Assembly (NCBI GenBank): GCA_963708295.1
Contig: CAVPSJ010000014.1
Span: 192,001-256,000 of the forward strand
DNA from: an uncultured delta proteobacterium
GTDB taxonomy: Bacteria; Desulfobacterota; BSN033; UBA1163
DNA: 64,000 nucleotides
Direction: 5' to 3'
Shown here: in pieces, positions 34,885-42,546 of the stretch
How positions within the stretch are numbered: position 1 is the first letter of the stretch
Layout of the letters: every line of letters starts with the position of its first letter
Position numbers and translations under genes: made by a program
Notes under the pieces: model-generated
The model's input: only the letters and a program-made list of their open reading frames with translations
Told to the model about the DNA's origin: nothing
Databases searched by the model: none

Positions 34885-36045
34885 ATGGCACTCGACTTCA
34901 GTTTTACAGAAGATCACGAGTTCTTCAGGCAGACCGTCCGGGGTGCTGTGAAGCGTTTAATCTTACCCCGGGTCAAGGAACTGGACGAAAAAGAGGAATT
35001 CCCCTGGGACCTCTGGAAGGAATTTGCTGCCCTGGGGTATCTCGGCCTAAAACACGAAGAAAAATACGGGGGCATGTCAACCGATACCATCAGTCAGATG
35101 ATCTTCTACGAAGAACTCGCAAGGGGGTCTTGCGGCTTTGCTATGTCAGCGATTATGCAGATCCTGATGGGAACTTATTTCATCGCCCGTTTCGGAAACG
35201 AGGATATTAAGCAGAGGATTCTTGTTCCCGCCATCAAAGGCGAAAAGATTGGCACGATCTGTTTTACTGAGGACCAATCTGGTTCGGATCTCGCCGGAAC
35301 AAAAACGCTAGCAACGAAGGTGGATGGAGGTTGGAGGATCAACGGTCAAAAACAGTGGATCACCAACGGTCCCATTGCTGAATTCGCTACGGTGATGGCA
35401 ACGGTGGATCGGAAAATGGGTCTGAAGGGTCTTAATTTTTACCTCGTAGAAAAGAAGACGAAGAATCGTGATGGGTTCGTCCCCGGCCAGAAGATCCATA
35501 AATTGGGCTCTCGCTGCTCGGTAACAGGTGAGCTGGTGTTTGACAATGTCTTTGTTCCTGATGAGAATTTCCTGGGAGAGGAAATCGGCAAAGGGGTTCA
35601 GTATGCCGGAAACATTCTCAACGAAGTGCGTGTCATGACAGGCATGTGCGCTTTGTCGATTGCAAAAGAAGCCATGGAAGATGCGAGGCAATATGCCAAT
35701 AACCGAATTGCTTTTGGAAACGCCATCAGCAAGTATCAACTCATTCGCGAAAAATTTGCCAAATTCTGGGCCTGGTATGAGGCTTCTCGAACCTTCCTCT
35801 ACAGGTGCGCATGGATGATTCAAAACAACATCCCTTGTACGAACGAATGCATGATGGCCAAATATCACTCTGCAGAGATGTGTATGTACGCGGTGGAAGA
35901 GGCCATGAGGATTTACGGTGGAAACGCCTTCTGCACCGACATTTCTGTCCAGCGATTCTGGAGAGATGCGAAATTCCTGCTCTATGGGGGTGGCACCCAT
36001 GAAGTTCTGTGTGATTATCTGGGAAGGGTTTACTGTAAAGATTAA
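34885..36045 (+). CDS. Acyl-CoA dehydrogenase
   Basis: TEDQSGSD, INGQKQWITNG, KLGSR, RIAFG, RFWRDAK..GGGTHE. Confidence 0.93.
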   Translation: MALDFSFTEDHEFFRQTVRGAVKRLILPRVKELDEKEEFPWDLWKEFAALGYLGLKHEEKYGGMSTDTISQMIFYEELARGSCGFAMSAIMQILMGTYFIARFGNEDIKQRILVPAIKGEKIGTICFTEDQSGSDLAGTKTLATKVDGGWRINGQKQWITNGPIAEFATVMATVDRKMGLKGLNFYLVEKKTKNRDGFVPGQKIHKLGSRCSVTGELVFDNVFVPDENFLGEEIGKGVQYAGNILNEVRVMTGMCALSIAKEAMEDARQYANNRIAFGNAISKYQLIREKFAKFWAWYEASRTFLYRCAWMIQNNIPCTNECMMAKYHSAEMCMYAVEEAMRIYGGNAFCTDISVQRFWRDAKFLLYGGGTHEVLCDYLGRVYCKD

Positions 36046-36193
36046 CCTAACCGCCTTGCGCCCCTGCCTGCCGGGAGGCAGGCTCTTGGAAAATGGATTG
36101 AGATTTAGAAAACTGGATTGCTTTCCCACCACAGAGTCATGGGGAGCCTAGGGCATCTGAGGTGATACGGGTTATGAACGAGGGTTGCCTTCG

Positions 36194-36454
36194 ATGAAGA
36201 TCACCGAAAAGCTACCTCTCGATACCTTTATAAACGACGAAGAGTCCCGCATCCTTCTTGAGCAACAAATCTGTCACACGATCAAGAACAATTCTGCGTT
36301 TATGCCTGCCCCGCAAACCTGTACTCCCTCAACGAAAAAGGAGAGAGGACCGTCGAATTTGCCGGATGGCACCTGCAGGATTGCCTGCGTATAGGGTTCC
36401 GTGAAATGGAAATATCCCAAGAGCGGATTGGGTGTCCAGTATCGGTTTGGATGA
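36194..36454 (+). pseudogene. FixX-like ferredoxin remnant
   Basis: Fragments FCVYACPANLY and GTCRIACV*GSVKWKYPKSGLGVQYRFG*. CLEC is missing; there are frameshifts and an internal TAG. Confidence 0.75.
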
Positions 36455-36580
36455 GGGAACCCAAATCCATTTTCGACAATCCTCCGGCAGCACTGCTGTC
36501 CAAATTAAGTGGAATTCTCGGGAAGTAACGTTGATTTCATTCAGCTTTTGGATTGATATTCGCCTCTTTCAACGCCAGGT

Positions 36581-36812
36581 TTCACCGCAGAGGCGCGGAG
36601 ATCGCAGAGGGAGATTTTTCTTCTGCTCCAATCGGGAGACGGCGATTGGAGCAGAAACTTCGTCCCTTCGGGATCAGGATCGATCCGTTTGATGGCGGTG
36701 GTACTATCATGAGCCTTGTCTTTTTTTAGAATGACAAACCTTTTTATTTGGCGGTATCTCTCCGCCAAACAAAAAACCTTTTCTCCGCGTTCTCTGCGAC
36801 TCTGCGGTGAAA
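36581..36812. repeat. MITE-like element with 9-nt-periodic terminal inverted repeats (copy 2)
   Basis: TTCACCGCAGAGGCGCGGAGATCGCAGAG ... CTCCGCGTTCTCTGCGACTCTGCGGTGAA. Confidence 0.78.
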
Positions 36813-36871
36813 AGTCTATTTTGGACAGGTTTGCTCCGGCAGGGATTGATTGACATCCTGAGGCGAACTCC

Positions 36872-37042
36872 CTAACTCACTTTTTTCCACGTTTCCAAGC
36901 TTTCTTGGGACGTTAGAATTTGGCGGTCGCCCTCTTCTTCTTTTAGAACGACCCAGTCCCCGTCCATAACCACTCTTGCTACTCCGTAGATTTTACGAGT
37001 ATCGGGCTTAATAAACCTGTCACCCTCCTTGGCCCTTTCCAT
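36872..37042 (-). CDS. Small hypothetical protein, 56 aa (MERAKEGDRFIKPDTRKIYGVARVVMDGDWVVLKEEEG...)
   Basis: ATG to TAG ORF below the track cut-off, G-rich RBS, protein-like composition. Confidence 0.55.
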   Translation of the reverse strand: MERAKEGDRFIKPDTRKIYGVARVVMDGDWVVLKEEEGDRQILTSQESLETWKKVS

Positions 37043-37246
37043 AGTTCCCCACCCCTGGTTTAAAGTCTAAGTGAATATCCTTCCTCTCGAGGGAGAGTTT
37101 ATTAAATTAGGGACGGGGTGTCAATTAAAGAATTAGAAGAATTAGAAGAATGTCCTGGTGGTCCATCCATCGAGTAAACCTCTCTTAAAGACAGCAAAAG
37201 TTGACACGCTTAATCATACATTGTAAATTCCCTTTGAAAATAAGCG

Positions 37247-37429
37247 GTTCCCTCAAAAAGGAAAACATTTTTCTGGCGAGAGCTCCGTCTTTTGGGGAAA
37301 GGATTCACTTCCCCTCACTGCCTCGGGGTGGTCGCCTGAAAAGCCGCGAGCAGTATGGATTGATTGAACATGGCAAAGATCTGCCCTCCCCGGGTTCAAG
37401 AAAGATTTTTAGCACTTTCAGGTGAGGAA
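37247..37429 (+). ncRNA. Candidate 6S-like rod-shaped ncRNA
   Basis: Upstream TTGACA-17-TAAATT. The ends pair (TTCCCTCA/TGAGGAA), as do GTCTTTG/CAAAGAT. Apical ACTGCCTCG/CGAGCAGT hairpin and a central bubble. Confidence 0.4.
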
Positions 37430-37534
37430 TTCAGTACTTATGTGAAAATTCTTTCCACTTTTGGTTTTCGCTGAAATCGTTTGGATTCGAGAGAAGATCT
37501 TAATTATCGATAAGTTGCATCAAATGACAAAAAT

Positions 37535-37550
37535 TGGCACTAAACTTGCT
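37535..37550 (+). promoter_or_regulatory. Sigma-54 promoter
   Basis: TGGCAC-N5-TTGCT with exact -24/-12 spacing. Confidence 0.8.
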
Positions 37551-37601
37551 TTATTTCTCTATTGTTTCTATCTTACTTCTTATTAAGGACGGTCTTCCGA
37601 T

Positions 37602-37784
37602 ATGATAGCCTATGAATTTTACTGGCGCGATGAAATTGGGAAGGAACATCTTGTTGGAATACTTCCGGAGAGAAGAAGAAACTCATTGAGAATAACCAAG
37701 GAGTCTATTCTGAATTGGGTTTCGATGGTGATTGGAAATAATTTGGAAAGTAACAATATCTATTTCGTTCAAGTGGAATTATAG
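37602..37784 (+). CDS. Small hypothetical protein (60 aa)
   Basis: AAGGA RBS, own sigma-54 promoter and terminator. Confidence 0.75.
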   Translation: MIAYEFYWRDEIGKEHLVGILPERRRNSLRITKESILNWVSMVIGNNLESNNIYFVQVEL

Positions 37785-37858
37785 GTTAAATCTGGGACAG
37801 AGATGATCTGAATTGGGAAGCATCCCAATCGTGATTCGATATTCGATTATCAAAAGCG

Positions 37859-37891
37859 AAAGCAGAGTCGGAGATGACTCTGCTTTTTTTA
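37859..37891 (+). terminator. Intrinsic terminator
   Basis: AAAGCAGAGTC/GACTCTGCTTT stem followed by a T-run. Confidence 0.85.
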
Positions 37892-38085
37892 TCCCTTTGG
37901 GCGAGCTTTTCCTTGCTTCATCCAATATTTCTTGTTAGAATTCCACTACAAACCGCTGATCAGAGGGGAATCCCCCAGCCGTTTCATGGATTCTACCCGC
38001 TCCATTATAGGGCGGAAGCTTACAGGGTCCGTGACGTCCGTCAGCATGCCGTTTATCTAGAGTGAACACCCGCAAATCAAAGAAG

Positions 38086-38607
38086 ATGGCTAAAGAATTT
38101 GATGAGGCGTACATGAAGATGGCTCTGGAAGAGGCAGAGAAGGCTGGCGCGAGAGGGGAAGTTCCGGTGGGAGCCGTTTTATTAAAGGGAGGTCAGGTGC
38201 TGGCAAGAGATCACAATCGTTGCATCGAGCTCAGCGACCCGACTGCCCACGCAGAAATCCTCGTCCTGCGAAAAGGGGGGGAGATTTTAAGAAACTACCG
38301 ATTGAATGGAACTGCGATGTATGTGACGGCAGAGCCTTGCCCCATGTGCGTTTCCGCAATGGTTCACGGCAGGATATCGAGATTGGTCTTTGGGGCATCG
38401 GAGCCGAAATTTGGGGCGGTCGAATCAAAATTTAGATTGTTGAGCGATCAGGGCATGAATCACAAAGTAAAGGTTGAGCGGGGGATTCTCGAAAAAGAAT
38501 GCGGTGAAATCTTAAAGGTTTTCTTTAGAGGACGAAGAGGAAGAGAAAGTAACAAGTTAAGAGTTATGAGTTCAGAGTTAGCGGGTACGGGAATTAGACA
38601 AGAATGA
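38086..38607 (+). CDS. tadA: tRNA adenosine(34) deaminase
   Basis: EVPVGAV, DPTAHAE, EPCPMC. Confidence 0.95.
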   Translation: MAKEFDEAYMKMALEEAEKAGARGEVPVGAVLLKGGQVLARDHNRCIELSDPTAHAEILVLRKGGEILRNYRLNGTAMYVTAEPCPMCVSAMVHGRISRLVFGASEPKFGAVESKFRLLSDQGMNHKVKVERGILEKECGEILKVFFRGRRGRESNKLRVMSSELAGTGIRQE

Positions 38608-38655
38608 AAATAACTCAAAACTTGGAACTCAAAACTCATAACCGTAATTCAGCCA

Positions 38656-38744
38656 GGAGAGGTTGCCGAGTGGCTTAAGGCGCCGCTCTCGAAAAGCGGT
38701 TCTCCCGAAAGGAGACGTGGGTTCAAATCCCACCCTCTCCGCCA
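38656..38744 (+). tRNA. tRNA-Ser (CGA)
   Basis: GGAGAGG/CTCTCC acceptor stem, CCGCT-CTCGAAA-AGCGG anticodon arm, long variable arm, GCCA end. Confidence 0.95.
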
Positions 38745-38885
38745 TCCTACGCTAAAGCTTCGGCTGGCGAACCATGCACCCTGTAAGTTATAAAATCAGA
38801 GTTCAGAAAAATAAATACTCCTTAGAAATTTGATTAAGAATTACTCCGAACTCCGAGCTAAGAACTCTGAACTAATTTTTGAAAC

Positions 38886-38978
38886 GGAGAGATGCCCGAG
38901 AGGCCGAAGGGGCACGATTGGAAATCGTGTATTCCGCTAATAACGGGATCGTGGGTTCGACTCCCACTCTCTCCGCCA
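38886..38978 (+). tRNA. tRNA-Ser (GGA)
   Basis: CACGA-TTGGAAA-TCGTG anticodon arm, long variable arm, GGTTCGA, GCCA end. Confidence 0.95.
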
Positions 38979-38993
38979 TGCACCACGTAGGGT

Positions 38994-39178
38994 TCTGGCA
39001 GCCGTGCACCTTAAGGGCGCGGTATGCAACGCTGACCATGAGGTTCAGGATAGTCGCCATAGTTATAGCACCGCGTATGGTGCAGCTTGCCCTGAACCTG
39101 ACATGGTTTAGGGCGCCATAGGCCATGAACCGCGTAGTTCGTGGCAGCCGCGCACCTCACAGGGTACACGGCGCCAGA
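38994..39178 (+). ncRNA. Unidentified multi-stem structured element upstream of the GIY-YIG gene
   Basis: Three nested long stems and two hairpins, each carrying CGCCATAG-N7-ACCGCGTA. Confidence 0.6.
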
Positions 39179-39190
39179 TGACAGACTGAT

Positions 39191-39454
39191 ATGTATTATG
39201 TTTATGTGCTGAGAAGTCAGCTTGATGGAAGGCTCTACATCGGTTACACAGCGAACCTTAGGAATAGAATTCAAGAACACAATAGCGGGGAAGTGACATC
39301 AACAAAACCACGTAGGCCGTTAGAGTTAATTTTCTATGAAGGGTATAGGAGCATGGAAGATGCGAAACGTAGGGAACGTTATCTGAAGACTACTAAGGGT
39401 AAATCTTCATTGAACATAATGCTCCGAAATTCATTGAACCCATCGGCAAGATAG
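39191..39454 (+). CDS. Stand-alone GIY-YIG nuclease (87 aa)
   Basis: YYVYVL..LYIGYT..RIQEHN..RRERYLK. Confidence 0.92.
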   Translation: MYYVYVLRSQLDGRLYIGYTANLRNRIQEHNSGEVTSTKPRRPLELIFYEGYRSMEDAKRRERYLKTTKGKSSLNIMLRNSLNPSAR

Positions 39455-39484
39455 GGTCTACGAACAGGCGACGCAAGGAAGATC

Positions 39485-39596
39485 TTGTTGATAGCCGGGT
39501 CCTGCGCAACAAATGATTACAAACCCCGTCAGGTCCGGAAGGAAGCAGCGGTAGTAATCCCCTTTGTGTGCCGCAGGGGAGCCTGGCTATCAACAA
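39485..39596 (+). ncRNA. ffs: SRP RNA (4.5S core; possibly extends to 39451-39655)
   Basis: CCCCGTCAGGTCCGGAAGGAAGCAGCGG helix 8, long flanking stem TTGTTGATAGCC/GGCTATCAACAA, located upstream of dnaX. Confidence 0.95.
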
Positions 39597-39679
39597 ATGA
39601 TATACGGAACGAGAGCTGATGGGTGTCGGCTGGCAGTCGGCCGTTCTGAGACTATATTTCATTCATAACGGTGCATCCT

Positions 39680-41428
39680 ATGGCAAAAGAAGACACATCC
39701 TATCTCGTGCTGGCAAGAAAGTGGAGACCCCAGCTTTTCGAAGAGGTGATTGGGCAGCGGCACATCACCCAAACATTACAAAACGCCATTTCACAGAAAC
39801 GGGTAGCTCACGCCTTTTTGTTTACCGGAGCCAGAGGGGTGGGCAAGACTTCTTCAGCTCGCATTTTGGCAAAGGCCTTAAACTGCGAAAAGGGTTCCGG
39901 GACGAATCCCTGTAATCAATGTACGACCTGTCAAGAGGTGACCCACGGAACCTCGATGGATGTGATTGAGATTGATGGAGCCTCCAACCGCGGGATCGAT
40001 GAGATTCGGGAGTTGAGGGAGAATGTCCGTTATACTCCCGCCAAGAATCGGTATAAGATCTATATCATCGATGAGGTCCACATGCTGACCAAGGAGGCTT
40101 TCAATGCCTTGTTGAAGACCCTCGAAGAGCCACCTCCACACATCATCTTTATCTTGGCCACCACCGAACCCCATAAAATTCCTGCCACGATTCTTTCGCG
40201 TTGCCAGCGGTACGATTTCAAGAGGATTCCGTTTAAGGAGGTCATCGGAAGCCTGAAACGGATCGTGGGAGAAGAAGAGATCCAGATCAGTCCGAGAGGG
40301 CTTCTTTCGATTGCCCAGGAATCAGAGGGGAGCCTGAGGGATGCTGAAAGTCTCCTCGACCAGGTGATCGCTTATTCCGGGAAAAATATTCGTGATGAAG
40401 ATATTGCCGAAGTCCTCGGGCTCATCGATCGAAAAATGCTCAGCGATACCATCGAAGCGATTGCCGACAGGGATGTTGAAAGTTGTATGAAGGTCATCGA
40501 ACGCGTCTATCACTTTGGAGTCGACCTCCAGCATTTCAGCCGAGAGCTTCTTCAATATCTTCGCAATTTAATCCTCATCAAAGTCAGCCAGCATCCGGAA
40601 GGGTTAATGGAATTGCCGGAAGAGGAATTCATGCTCGTTAAGAAACAGGCAGAGAGGTTCGAATTCGAACAATTGAATTACCTTTTCACCCTTCTTTTGA
40701 AAGGAGAGCAAGAAACGGCGCAGTCTACTTTTCCTCGAACCATGCTCGAGGTGACATTGGTTCGAATGGCCACATTGCGTCCCCTCCTTCCTATCGATGA
40801 GATGCTGAAGAAACTGGAGGCGATGGAAAGCAAGGGACGGACCGGAGGGGACAGGGAGGGAAAAGCATCTCCTGCTTCAGGAAGAGTGGTCCGGTCAGAG
40901 GATCCGGTTAGAGATAGAAAAAAGGGAGAAGGGTCGCCGGAGAGGCGAGAGCCAACCAGGGAAGAAAAGGTTTGTGAGGAAAGTGAGAGTTTGGGGGATT
41001 TAAAAAAGGAGGAAGAGTCCAGTGGCGTCCTCCCGCAACGTCCGGAAGAGGCATGGAAAGGCCTGGTTGAATTTACACGGGCAAAGAATCCTATCTTGGG
41101 GGCATTCTTAGTCCTGGGAAATCTCGTTCATCTCGATGACGAAAGGATTGAGATCGGGTTTGAAAAAGATTCGTTTCACTACGATCGAATGCTGGAAAAG
41201 GAGAATCGGAGCCAATTAGAATCCATCTGTTTTGAATATTTTCAAAAGAAGGCGAAGGTGGTGATCTCGCCGTTGGCCCAGGGGGTAGGGTCCAAAGGAC
41301 GGGGGATGTTCAGCGAAGGAAAGGCAACCCCCGATGAAGAGGATGGGCGGTTGGGCCATCGGGCAGAGGAGAACCCTCTGATTCAGGAGGCGCTCCGTCT
41401 TTTTGACGGAAAGATTGTAGAAAGGTAA
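39680..41428 (+). CDS. dnaX: DNA polymerase III tau/gamma
   Basis: LARKWRP, GARGVGKT, EIDGASN, IIDEVHML, LSRCQ. Confidence 0.97.
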   Translation: MAKEDTSYLVLARKWRPQLFEEVIGQRHITQTLQNAISQKRVAHAFLFTGARGVGKTSSARILAKALNCEKGSGTNPCNQCTTCQEVTHGTSMDVIEIDGASNRGIDEIRELRENVRYTPAKNRYKIYIIDEVHMLTKEAFNALLKTLEEPPPHIIFILATTEPHKIPATILSRCQRYDFKRIPFKEVIGSLKRIVGEEEIQISPRGLLSIAQESEGSLRDAESLLDQVIAYSGKNIRDEDIAEVLGLIDRKMLSDTIEAIADRDVESCMKVIERVYHFGVDLQHFSRELLQYLRNLILIKVSQHPEGLMELPEEEFMLVKKQAERFEFEQLNYLFTLLLKGEQETAQSTFPRTMLEVTLVRMATLRPLLPIDEMLKKLEAMESKGRTGGDREGKASPASGRVVRSEDPVRDRKKGEGSPERREPTREEKVCEESESLGDLKKEEESSGVLPQRPEEAWKGLVEFTRAKNPILGAFLVLGNLVHLDDERIEIGFEKDSFHYDRMLEKENRSQLESICFEYFQKKAKVVISPLAQGVGSKGRGMFSEGKATPDEEDGRLGHRAEENPLIQEALRLFDGKIVER

Positions 41429-41482
41429 CTCTTCGTTAGAAATTCGAGGAGGCCGGATTCTAACGGAATAAAGGAGAGGCGC

Positions 41483-41797
41483 ATGGTAAAAGGCTTCGGG
41501 AACATACTAAAGCAGGCTCAGGAGATGCACGCTAAGATCGCCCAGCTCCAGGAGGAGATGGCAGGGAGAACGGTGGAAGCGAGTTCCGGGGGGGGCATGG
41601 TGAACATCGTGATGAACGGGAGACAGGAAGTCGTGAGCATCCGGATCGATCCGGAAGTGGTCAGTCGAGAAGACGTTGAGATGTTGCAAGATTTAATTGT
41701 AGCCGCCGTCAATGAGGCTATCCGGAAATCCCAGGAGATGATGACCGAAGAAATGAAAAAGGTTACGGGCGGACTCAATATTCCAGGATTGTTCTAA
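41483..41797 (+). CDS. ybaB: YbaB/EbfC nucleoid-associated protein
   Basis: SGGGMV, MLQDLIVAAVNEA; dnaX-recR synteny. Confidence 0.95.
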   Translation: MVKGFGNILKQAQEMHAKIAQLQEEMAGRTVEASSGGGMVNIVMNGRQEVVSIRIDPEVVSREDVEMLQDLIVAAVNEAIRKSQEMMTEEMKKVTGGLNIPGLF

Positions 41798-41946
41798 AGA
41801 GATTATTGTAAATTGTAAAATTACCAGTGCAAAATGCAAAATGAGGAACTCAACGGCACACTATAGAATGGAACAGAGCGTTGGGATCTTTCCAACTATT
41901 TTGCATTGCTAACTTTGCAATTTCCATTTTGTATTGAGGTCTTACG

Positions 41947-42546
41947 ATGGCTGCTTATCCCAAACCCATTGATCATCTGATAGAAGCCCTGGCAAGACTT
42001 CCGGGGATAGGGAAAAAGACGGCGTCCAGACTTGCCTTCCACGTCTTGCGGAGCAGTTCATCCGAGGCTCAAGAGCTGGCGAGAGCGATTTTGGACGTCA
42101 AAGAAAAGATCCGGCTTTGTTCAACCTGCTTCAACTTGACAGATGAAGATCCGTGTCGAATCTGCCAAGACGAACGCCGAGCCGGCGAGACTCTCTGTGT
42201 GGTCGAGGGGCCGAATGACCTGATCGCCATCGAGAACACGGGCGTTTTTGATGGAAGATACCACGTGTTGCACGGTACGATCTCTCCTCTGGAAGGTATT
42301 GGTCCAGACCACCTGAAAATGAAGGAACTGCTGGAAAGGCTTCAAAAGGAAAAGATTTCGGAAGTGATTCTGGCCAGCAATCCCACGGTCGAAGGGGGAG
42401 CCACGGCTCTTTATCTGGTTGATCTGATTAAGCCTTTAGGCATAAAAGTAACAAGAATCGCCTACGGAATCCCGATGGGAAGCGAAATTGAATACTCAGA
42501 CGGGATGACCTTATCCAAAGCCCTTGAGGGCCGCAGGGAAATTTGA
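41947..42546 (+). CDS. recR: Recombination mediator RecR
   Basis: LPGIGKKTA, C4 zinc finger, YHVLHG, NPTVEG. Confidence 0.97.
   Translation: MAAYPKPIDHLIEALARLPGIGKKTASRLAFHVLRSSSSEAQELARAILDVKEKIRLCSTCFNLTDEDPCRICQDERRAGETLCVVEGPNDLIAIENTGVFDGRYHVLHGTISPLEGIGPDHLKMKELLERLQKEKISEVILASNPTVEGGATALYLVDLIKPLGIKVTRIAYGIPMGSEIEYSDGMTLSKALEGRREI

Follow-up and report, generated by a model that had tools for sequence, protein, structure and literature searches.

The stretch of DNA analysed here, called the window throughout, comprises 64,000 nucleotides of an uncultured delta proteobacterium (GenBank assembly GCA_963708295.1, contig CAVPSJ010000014.1, positions 192,001 to 256,000 of the forward strand); the feature under study lies behind a tRNA-Ser(GGA) gene, where a strongly folding segment precedes a small gene for an 87-amino-acid (aa) GIY-YIG nuclease. 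Our analysis makes it close to certain that positions 38975-39176 are a cluster of a 26-bp palindromic DNA repeat, termed R1, which resembles repetitive extragenic palindromic (REP) sequences and bacterial interspersed mosaic elements (BIME), and not a dedicated RNA gene. As for the neighbouring gene, the reading we favour is that the locus may be a pair of the type known from the Ssn family, in which the nuclease would recognise R1 hairpins extruded from single-stranded DNA and cut beside them; our belief and our doubt in this reading are about evenly balanced. Genomes, contigs and loci are designated below by G, C and L numbers, G000 being the genome of the window.

The R1 unit, as parsed from the window and from orthologous loci, consists of GCC-NNG-NAC-Y, a 6-nt loop and R-GTN-CNN-GGC. 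When its own genome (4.95 Mb, 20 contigs) was searched with the 212-nt stretch, the middle part was found at about ten other places with ~82% identity; these matches are hairpin pairs with CCTGCACC-type and CCCTGAACC-type arms contained in a longer dispersed repeat, and no GIY-YIG gene adjoins them. The pattern GCC..G[AC]AC…GT[GT]C..GGC proved too strict, retrieving 9 sites only; a covariance model derived from distinct units took its place and yielded in the same genome at least 74 matches on both strands, equivalent to at least 38 sites, among the best 150 of 1153 candidates (per-genome counts given below are likewise among the best 140-150 candidates scored). Of those 38 sites, 28 lie in no stop-free frame of at least 100 codons. 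Two-sided changes that keep the pairing were seen at 6 of the 10 stem positions among 39 distinct units; the units had been chosen for at least 8 of 10 pairs, so that the figure of 95% pairing is circular. Within this Thermodesulfobacteriota family, 41 of the 55 genomes contain R1; of 16 genomes belonging to neighbouring families, none does.

The units of the window, placed by hairpin scans, matches of the R1 covariance model and the homologous arrays of relatives, and the stems in the pair table of the minimum free energy (MFE) fold are as follows:

38975-39176, array of R1 units and fragments
38975-38999, array unit 1, right arm degenerate
39001-39023, array unit 2
39035-39050, inverted half unit
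39066-39085, further unit
39089-39114, further unit (model match C14:231089-231114)
39122-39145, further unit (model match C14:231122-231145)
39147-39172, further unit (model match C14:231147-231172)
39173-39176, closing GCCA
38994-39012/39161-39178, stem of 17 pairs in the MFE fold
39014-39023/39147-39157, stem of 10 pairs in the MFE fold
39034-39049/39091-39108, stem of 16 pairs in the MFE fold
39068-39072/39079-39083 and 39122-39130/39137-39145, hairpins of the MFE fold

The encoded 3' GCCA of tRNA-Ser(GGA) (38975-38978) doubles as the first four bases of the first palindromic unit.

An earlier note on this DNA, made from the sequence alone, had described nested stems and hairpins as a structured RNA. 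The stems are real, since the MFE fold of 38979-39191 on the + strand reproduces them almost base for base (-97.8 kcal/mol, z -4.46, 0 of 200 shuffles as good), and the outer stem ends at 39178, closing 12 nt before the ATG as had been reported. However, the opposite strand of the same segment folds equally well (-97.8 kcal/mol, z -5.37), which was a first sign of palindromic DNA and not of an oriented RNA. Moreover, stem mismatches on the gene strand, with both kinds treated alike, were split evenly, G:T 10 vs A:C 10 in 34 units of tRNA-linked arrays; a structure selected as RNA of that strand would favour G:U, and no such bias is seen. A structure conserved beside homologous nucleases had been anticipated, and RNAalifold applied to eight orthologous spacers retained none of the long-range stems; what remained were an invariant GCGCCA and the local hairpins formed by the first unit and by the last.

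The arrays themselves vary, from 2 units (G015, L049) to about 8, in shuffled order. They alternate two unit types, A and B; G047 has four tandem copies of a block [A unit + B unit + GCCA + AATCA], and in several arrays (G012, G010) a split A-type unit holds other units inside its loop. Nested stems such as those of the window are to be expected where similar palindromes lie side by side and within each other. The twin module (CGCCATAG…ACCGCGTA…GCAGC) highlighted previously is present, as a direct repeat of 39055-39077 and 39114-39136 with 74% identity, and is the repeated junction of GCGCCA, spacer and A-type unit. A search of Rfam in E-value mode, with E up to 1, over 36000-42000 returned the two tRNAs, the signal recognition particle (SRP) RNA and sub-threshold noise only, with nothing on 38979-39190. 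The segment had also been regarded as something other than generic REP sequences; its units turned out to be REP-like dispersed palindromes, found also behind tRNA genes without a nuclease gene. The RNA-guide reading is not supported, and no support was obtained for an RNA antitoxin pair either. The proposal of a mobile element fits the wider GIY-YIG family described below.

The open reading frame (ORF) behind the array matches Pfam PF01541 (GIY-YIG) with an E value of 1.3e-18 and 67.5 bits (cut-off 22.6), the domain spanning residues 1-73, which bears out its description as an 87-aa ORF without a DNA-binding extension. Orthologues of 83-87 aa keep YVYVL, LYIGYT and the conserved R, H and E positions in 10 of 10 cases. 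The best solved relatives in the PDB are the UPF0213 proteins 1zg2 (BH0048, E 1.6e-6) and 1ywl (EF2693, E 1.7e-6); that search, made with the 87-aa protein, returned only UPF0213 and SLX1 relatives and no Ssn structure, the NCBIfam search gave no match above cut-off, and the ESM Atlas placed the protein in generic GIY-YIG clusters only. The ratio of non-synonymous to synonymous substitution rates (dN/dS) was 0.05-0.16 in the 19 of 45 orthologue pairs with unsaturated dS. The gene is under purifying selection, and the ORF is, judged by its sequence, a functional single-domain GIY-YIG nuclease.

Orthologues with 72-88% identity were found in 8 of the 55 family genomes, representing four genera, and in one public record (L049). 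Upstream DNA was readable at ten loci: G000, G004, G012 (two), G007 (second copy), G002, G015, L049, G047 and G053 (= L050); the first G007 copy starts at a contig end and was left out, and the G002 contig starts inside the array. At all ten, the R1 array ends in …GGC-GCCA 9-19 nt before the ATG, so that the link between hairpin region and nuclease gene drawn in the earlier note stands, as an array before the start codon, and its dedicated or guide RNA does not. The gene upstream of the array is a tRNA-Ser in each of the nine loci where it is visible, with the anticodon GGA in G000, G004, G012 and G007, CGA in G015, TGA in G012, L049 and G047, and GCT in G053. G015 carries array and gene behind tRNA-Ser(CGA), and its tRNA-Ser(GGA) has no array. 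In a tree of the ten orthologues and two outgroups the four GGA-site copies form a clade (85/85), which suggests vertical descent, and together with the purifying selection this clade indicates long retention; the other branches were without support, so that no order of moves of the gene between sites follows from this tree. R1 matches per genome had a median of 86.5 (27-139) in the eight genomes with an orthologue vs 9 (0-82) in the 47 without, and the medians within the genus were 105 with the gene vs 36.5 without it.

The closest known model for such an arrangement is the Ssn family, which Chenal et al. described in 2025 (PMC11893778). Its proteins are about 94 aa long and consist of a GIY-YIG domain only (CDD cd10448); the criteria for the family are a length under 150 aa and either assignment to cd10448 or a blast E below 1e-10 to SsnA of N. 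meningitidis (PMC11893778). According to that paper, SsnA of N. meningitidis binds the hairpin repeat NTS and cuts single-stranded DNA just upstream of it, being inactive on double-stranded DNA and RNA; it is the only member reported there as tested on RNA, with no interaction, and three purified SsnA homologues cut their own repeats as single-stranded DNA (PMC11893778). At least one related hairpin motif (SRM) was reported within 5 kb for 71% of the Ssn homologous genes (PMC11893778). By analogy, R1 hairpins would extrude from single-stranded DNA in replication, DNA uptake or heavy transcription, and the small GIY-YIG nuclease would recognise the extruded hairpins and cut beside them; the gene would sit beside its own sites, with low expression through read-through from the tRNA promoter. 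We infer here the binding, the cleavage, the single-stranded DNA substrate and the co-transcription. Co-transcription of the ORF with tRNA-Ser seems plausible because both lie on the same strand and no promoter-like or terminator-like site was found in the spacer between them.

Several observations weigh against this pairing. The SRM pattern of the Ssn paper (HGTCWY…RNCYNB; PMC11893778) has 0 matches in window positions 38600-39700, and genome-wide its 41 matches compare with 38 and 32 in two shuffles, that is, without enrichment. The 87-aa protein is only 32-35% identical to the paralogues of its own genome that have the Ssn layout, no closer than to UPF0213 (E ~1e-6). R1 units lie only 5' of the gene, with none 3', and lack a conserved asymmetric flank except for GCCA. 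Genomes rich in R1 occur without the gene: G008 (90% complete) has 75 R1 matches and no homologue of the 87-aa protein at E 1e-10, and in its cluster of five tRNA genes an R1 unit beginning with the tRNA's own GCCA comes directly after four, Ser(GCT), Arg(ACG), Ser(CGA) and Ser(GGA); G024 and G066 have 82 and 74 matches without an orthologue; and tRNA-Ser(CGA) of G010 carries a full array with no gene behind it (two contigs). The Mann-Whitney values for the counts of genomes with and without an orthologue, over the family and within the genus (3.6e-5 and 0.004), ignore kinship, draw on the best 140-150 candidates and are suggestive only. In L049 and G047, likewise, the next tRNA-Ser(GCT) has R1 units and no gene. 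Since R1 units are found behind tRNA genes that lack the nuclease, R1 is a generic repeat favouring tRNA 3' ends, independent of the nuclease gene.

The tie to tRNA genes extends beyond the orthologues. In a wider set of 80 homologue loci (L045-L124; 45-87% identity) from groups of the candidate phyla radiation (CPR), Bacteroidota, Gammaproteobacteria, Scalindua and others, a same-strand tRNA lies within 500 nt upstream of the GIY-YIG ORF in 25 and downstream in 20, and none lies on the opposite strand; these loci contain 75 tRNA genes in 430 kb. In 7 of 34 tRNA-gene pairs the ORF is followed by 12 nt or more copied from the 3' half of the tRNA, sometimes with a hairpin inserted in the T loop. 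Of 76 loci, 22 have a perfect hairpin of at least 8 bp in the 120 nt before the ORF and 6 have one in the 120 nt after it, against 0 of 152 shuffled windows. In the genome of the window, 3 of the 8 GIY-YIG copies lie just after tRNA genes. This suggests that the minimal GIY-YIG family may live in tRNA operons, possibly as small mobile cassettes, and the tRNA tie of the wider family may matter more than the locus itself. A repeat family of its own was considered as a rule for each tRNA-linked homologue and was discarded, since in L100 and L082 the hairpins that precede the GIY-YIG gene each exist in one copy per genome.

A competing explanation, which we consider possible but unlikely, is that R1 palindromes and GIY-YIG cassettes gather independently at a shared hot spot 3' of tRNA-Ser genes, the nuclease being a SegB-like homing gene whose target is the tRNA gene region, with no functional tie to the hairpins. 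The R1 arrays behind tRNA genes without the gene agree with it, as do the counts of same-strand tRNA genes and of tRNA 3'-half copies in the wider family. The tRNA-Ser(GGA)-ffs spacer of G003 (L128, G003:C3) points the same way, holding a different GIY-YIG gene (48% identity) after an unrelated 74-nt tandem repeat of ~7 copies, whose hairpin ends in GCCA, and before a duplicate of the tRNA 3' end plus TGCACC. The same spacer is without the gene in G009, G010 and G011, where the site proposed as empty in relatives has AT-rich hairpins only, and a precedent exists in SegB of phage T4 (PMC2330249). However, an independent gathering sits poorly with a gene-array junction that is constant in ten orthologous loci, four tRNA-Ser isoacceptors and four genera, and with a gene presence that goes with R1 abundance. 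The 87-aa protein also lacks the DNA-binding domain of the homing GIY-YIG type, its strong purifying selection, together with dS saturated between sites, speaks for a gene kept over long periods and not for a selfish one of boom and decay, and the clade of GGA-site copies suggests vertical descent.

The hairpins might instead act in the transcript, the stem plus GCCA mimicking a tRNA acceptor end as a processing or punctuation signal of the RNase P or 3'-end type; processing would free the tRNA and leave a short-leader mRNA for translation of an ORF without a Shine-Dalgarno (SD) motif, or, alternatively, the hairpins would limit read-through into a nuclease gene that could be harmful. Minihelix-RCCA molecules are among the substrates of RNase P. 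The sharing of the tRNA GCCA by the first unit, the GCCA that always follows the last unit 9-19 nt before the ATG, the fourfold block of G047 and a spacer devoid of SD-like motif, promoter-like or terminator-like site all fit such a role, as do the unrelated hairpins ending in ...CGCCA just before the start codon in the CPR loci L082, L100 and L115 and the start of the ORF 0-31 nt after the tRNA in 5 of 25 tRNA-linked loci. Nevertheless, stem mismatches show no strand bias, most dispersed R1 copies are without GCCA and away from tRNA genes, and among 37 loci in which an automatic scan detected a hairpin of 7 bp or longer, NCCA followed the hairpin ahead of the start codon in 3 only, each of them a close orthologue; the same figure led us to drop this feature as a family-wide rule. 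We give the transcript role a slim chance. The chance is close to nil for a dedicated structured non-coding RNA with two variable modules that guides or binds the nuclease, like those of IscB/TnpB or IS110, or acts as an RNA antitoxin. Its appeal lies in a fold far more stable than shuffles, placed directly 5' of the ORF on the same strand, with stem sequences that differ while pairing is kept; against it, the global fold is not conserved in eight orthologous arrays whose unit number and order vary, the units belong to a dispersed repeat family found also without the gene, the opposite strand is equally stable with no G:U bias and no Rfam match, and the characterised relative SsnA is reported without RNA interaction (PMC11893778).

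The pairing of R1 hairpins with a nuclease of the Ssn type can be extended to a bolder version, a long shot in our opinion, in which minimal Ssn-like GIY-YIG genes would be residents of tRNA operons across bacterial phyla, as tiny mobile cassettes using hairpins that become exposed in single-stranded DNA where tRNA genes are heavily transcribed. In the lineage of the window, cleavage by the nuclease would fall beside the R1 hairpin, adjacent to GCCA; its repair would insert the ORF exactly where the enzyme cuts and, at the same time, lay down further [unit-GCCA] blocks downstream of tRNA genes. Such a process would explain the constant junction 9-19 nt after GCGCCA and the tandem [A+B+GCCA] blocks, and it would also explain the partial tRNA duplicates beside homologues in other phyla. 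If true, the Ssn family would gain a genomic niche and a mode of spread absent from the main text of the 2025 paper (PMC11893778). If the basic pairing holds, the 'RNA-guided GIY-YIG' candidate becomes a DNA-level system, and the Ssn single-stranded DNA nucleases acquire a new hairpin specificity, of interest as cutting tools. R1-type palindromes behind tRNA genes should not be annotated as RNA genes.

The surroundings of the array in the window are the following:

38062-38607, + strand, tadA-like deaminase gene (Pfam MafB19-deam, dCMP_cyt_deam_1)
38656-38744, + strand, tRNA-Ser(CGA) (ARAGORN; Rfam tRNA, 58.1 bits)
38772-38787, lone partial R1 left arm (CCATGCACCCTGTAAG), 28 nt after tRNA-Ser(CGA) (direct-repeat and inverted-repeat scan)
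38886-38978, + strand, tRNA-Ser(GGA) (ARAGORN; Rfam, 52.6 bits)
39177-39190, + strand, 14-nt spacer from GCGCCA to ATG, without SD-like motif
39191-39454, + strand, gene of the 87-aa single-domain GIY-YIG nuclease, stop codon included (ORF list; Pfam PF01541)
39493-39591, + strand, SRP (4.5S) RNA gene ffs, downstream neighbour outside the element (Rfam RF00169, 80.4 bits)
from 39671, + strand, 585-aa ORF (ORF list), which we take by eye, without a family search, to be dnaX

The ffs gene marks a conserved site, being the same neighbour in G004, G012, G007 and G002. The sequence CCATGCACC was found after both tRNAs, at 38772 and 38976, as the earlier note had pointed out, and the partial arm at the former place may be an R1 remnant; full R1 units follow the homologous tRNA-Ser(CGA) in G015 and G010. 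The hairpin GCTAAAGCTTCGGCTGGCGAACCA lies directly 3' of tRNA-Ser(CGA) (38745-38771), ends in CCA and is similar to the 74-nt unit repeated in tandem in G003. The lack of a clear SD was confirmed, no AGGAGG-like motif being present in the 14 nt from GCGCCA to the ATG. The inverted repeat CGTAGGGTTCT/AGGGTCTACG, once taken to bound the unit, is complementary over CGTAG/CTACG only, was absent from the inverted-repeat scan and has no counterpart past the stop codon of the orthologues, and we judge it, as an element boundary, to be chance. Two public RNA contig sets cover only the tRNAs and ffs, which are conserved and possibly derive from other organisms, and are uninformative on transcription of the array or the ORF; no public sequencing run contains half or more of the sampled words. 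When two public DNA contig sets were aligned, one contig represented a shorter-array allele that skips 39118-39189.

Regarding R1 elsewhere in the genome, most dispersed pairs (L002-L008, e.g. G000:C17:483400-483560) form the core of a ~170-nt composite repeat with CCTCCCCC…GGGGGAGG hairpins on one side and GGGTGGGGGTGGGG on the other, in at least 8 near-identical copies. GCCA was tried as a general target-site duplication of R1 and rejected, most dispersed copies being flanked by G-rich or C-rich hairpins instead. Behind tRNA-Trp (G000:C5:66500-66583, minus strand) two hairpins of similar style follow, starting at its GCCA, GCCATGTACCC…GGGGCACGGC and then CTGCCATGGGTC…, both below the threshold of the R1 scan. 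The second GIY-YIG copy of G012 (L035:1-855) lies behind a tRNA-Ser(TGA) that directly follows a long open frame, which we take by context, without a family search, to be the seryl-tRNA synthetase gene.

Among the loci of the wider family, some carry incomplete copies of the neighbouring tRNA next to the GIY-YIG ORF. L109 has the 3' part of a tRNA-Arg, with a 56-nt hairpin in the T loop; pieces of tRNA-Lys lie on both sides of the ORF in L077, a tandem T arm of tRNA-Leu accompanies the gene in L099, and in L067 the parts of a divided tRNA-Leu(TAA) enclose the gene together with an intact copy of that tRNA. At L010 of the window's own genome (G000:C4:299562-299960), tRNA-Ala(GGC) is followed by copies without anticodon arm. 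In the CPR loci L100, L115 and L082 two hairpins separate the tRNA from the GIY-YIG start, the first using the tRNA 3' end as its 5' arm and the second ending in …CGCCA just before the start codon, with sequences unrelated to R1.

Moreover, some tRNA-Ser copies have their T loop interrupted between GGTTCG and ATCC by an insert of ~45-130 nt; it has a core GCGACCC…GGGGAGGCGGA…GAGCAC, and the final 18 nt of the tRNA are duplicated at its border (L136:515-643, on G000:C14 ~57 kb upstream of the window; L125; L127; L129; L035:1166-1300); it looks like a tiny non-autonomous element targeting the T loop of tRNA-Ser. A short inverted repeat closely encloses the more distant homologues (L022-L026, L036 and L037, as well as many of L069-L120): a CCCCGTTAGAGAT-like sequence precedes the ATG by 5-25 nt, and its complement makes up the last codons (…TCTCTAACGGGG TGA). 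Some of them are inserted at differing positions in what, from the translated flanks, are presumably genes of ORF6N-like and four-helix-bundle (23S rRNA intervening-sequence) proteins. These bracketed homologues look like mini-transposons with the nuclease gene only.

Compared with known systems, the locus shares with the Ssn family a bare GIY-YIG domain of ~90 aa without DNA-binding extension, and a gene that adjoins hairpin repeats of 20-50 nt which are multi-copy elsewhere in the genome (PMC11893778). As in that family (PMC11893778), gene presence may track repeat abundance, the counts being uncorrected for kinship and taken among the best 140-150 candidates, and several repeat-rich genomes lacking the gene. 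In contrast, Ssn binding to NTS in Neisseria is reported to need an asymmetric flank, whereas R1 units have no oriented GTCAT-type flank and lie on the 5' side only (PMC11893778). A further difference is the attachment of the R1 arrays to the 3' ends of tRNA genes; the main text of the Ssn paper has no instance of the word 'tRNA' (PMC11893778). Canonical Ssn/SRM layouts do occur in the genome of the window, its paralogues L012 (G000:C13:194876-195124) and L013 (G000:C19:36086-36313) being bracketed by inverted GTCAT-hairpin-ATCTCA repeats. Repeats near-identical to the Neisseria NTS consensus (TGTCATTCCCGCGAAAGCGGGAATCC…) were seen in the Thermodesulfobacteriota loci L050:2389-2452 and L047:660-687, and also at L086:625-1222, where five SRM matches lie ~1.8-2.4 kb upstream of the GIY-YIG gene; the SRM pattern hits such NTS-like repeats in all three loci.

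R1 resembles REP/BIME in that its units are short, imperfect palindromes, lie for the most part outside genes and vary in stem sequence with compensation; two unit types alternate in its arrays, copies per genome number in the tens, and the family is specific to a lineage. The REP/BIME traits, and those of the REP-associated tyrosine (RAYT) transposases, come from E. coli and Pseudomonas, and to our knowledge a start at the GCCA of a tRNA gene is not one of them. Unlike in those systems, the neighbouring gene here encodes a GIY-YIG nuclease and not a Y1 (RAYT) transposase; a RAYT was considered as the partner of R1 and rejected, as none of the 9 Y1_Tnp Pfam matches in the genome is flanked by R1 (nearest ~3 kb, on C20; repeats proper to those flanks were not searched). 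The relation of RAYT to REP/BIME is cited in the Ssn paper too, its authors likening the NTS-ssnA-NTS layout to insertion sequences and to this relation (PMC11893778).

SegB of phage T4, a GIY-YIG homing endonuclease encoded within the phage tRNA gene cluster, cuts DNA site-specifically and promotes its own inheritance (PMC2330249). It resembles our case in the position of a GIY-YIG gene among tRNA genes, and in the wider family analysed here the same-strand tRNA link is strong. The difference is that here a bare catalytic domain is found in a bacterial chromosome. The T4 enzyme exceeds the 87-aa protein more than twofold in length and includes a DNA-binding portion. Apart from SegB, our full-text searches brought up no relevant literature linking GIY-YIG proteins to REP elements or bacterial tRNA operons. 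UPF0213 proteins are likewise small and stand-alone, but their similarity is weak, and we know of no repeat association for them. With the omega RNA of IscB/TnpB and the bridge RNA of IS110, which have a conserved architecture, strand specificity and a variable guide segment, the locus has in common only the layout of a strongly folding segment beside a small nuclease gene; those three features are missing here, and the units are generic repeats. On this comparison, the locus would best be filed as an Ssn-like nuclease beside REP/BIME-like repeats, new in its tie to the tRNA-Ser 3' end.

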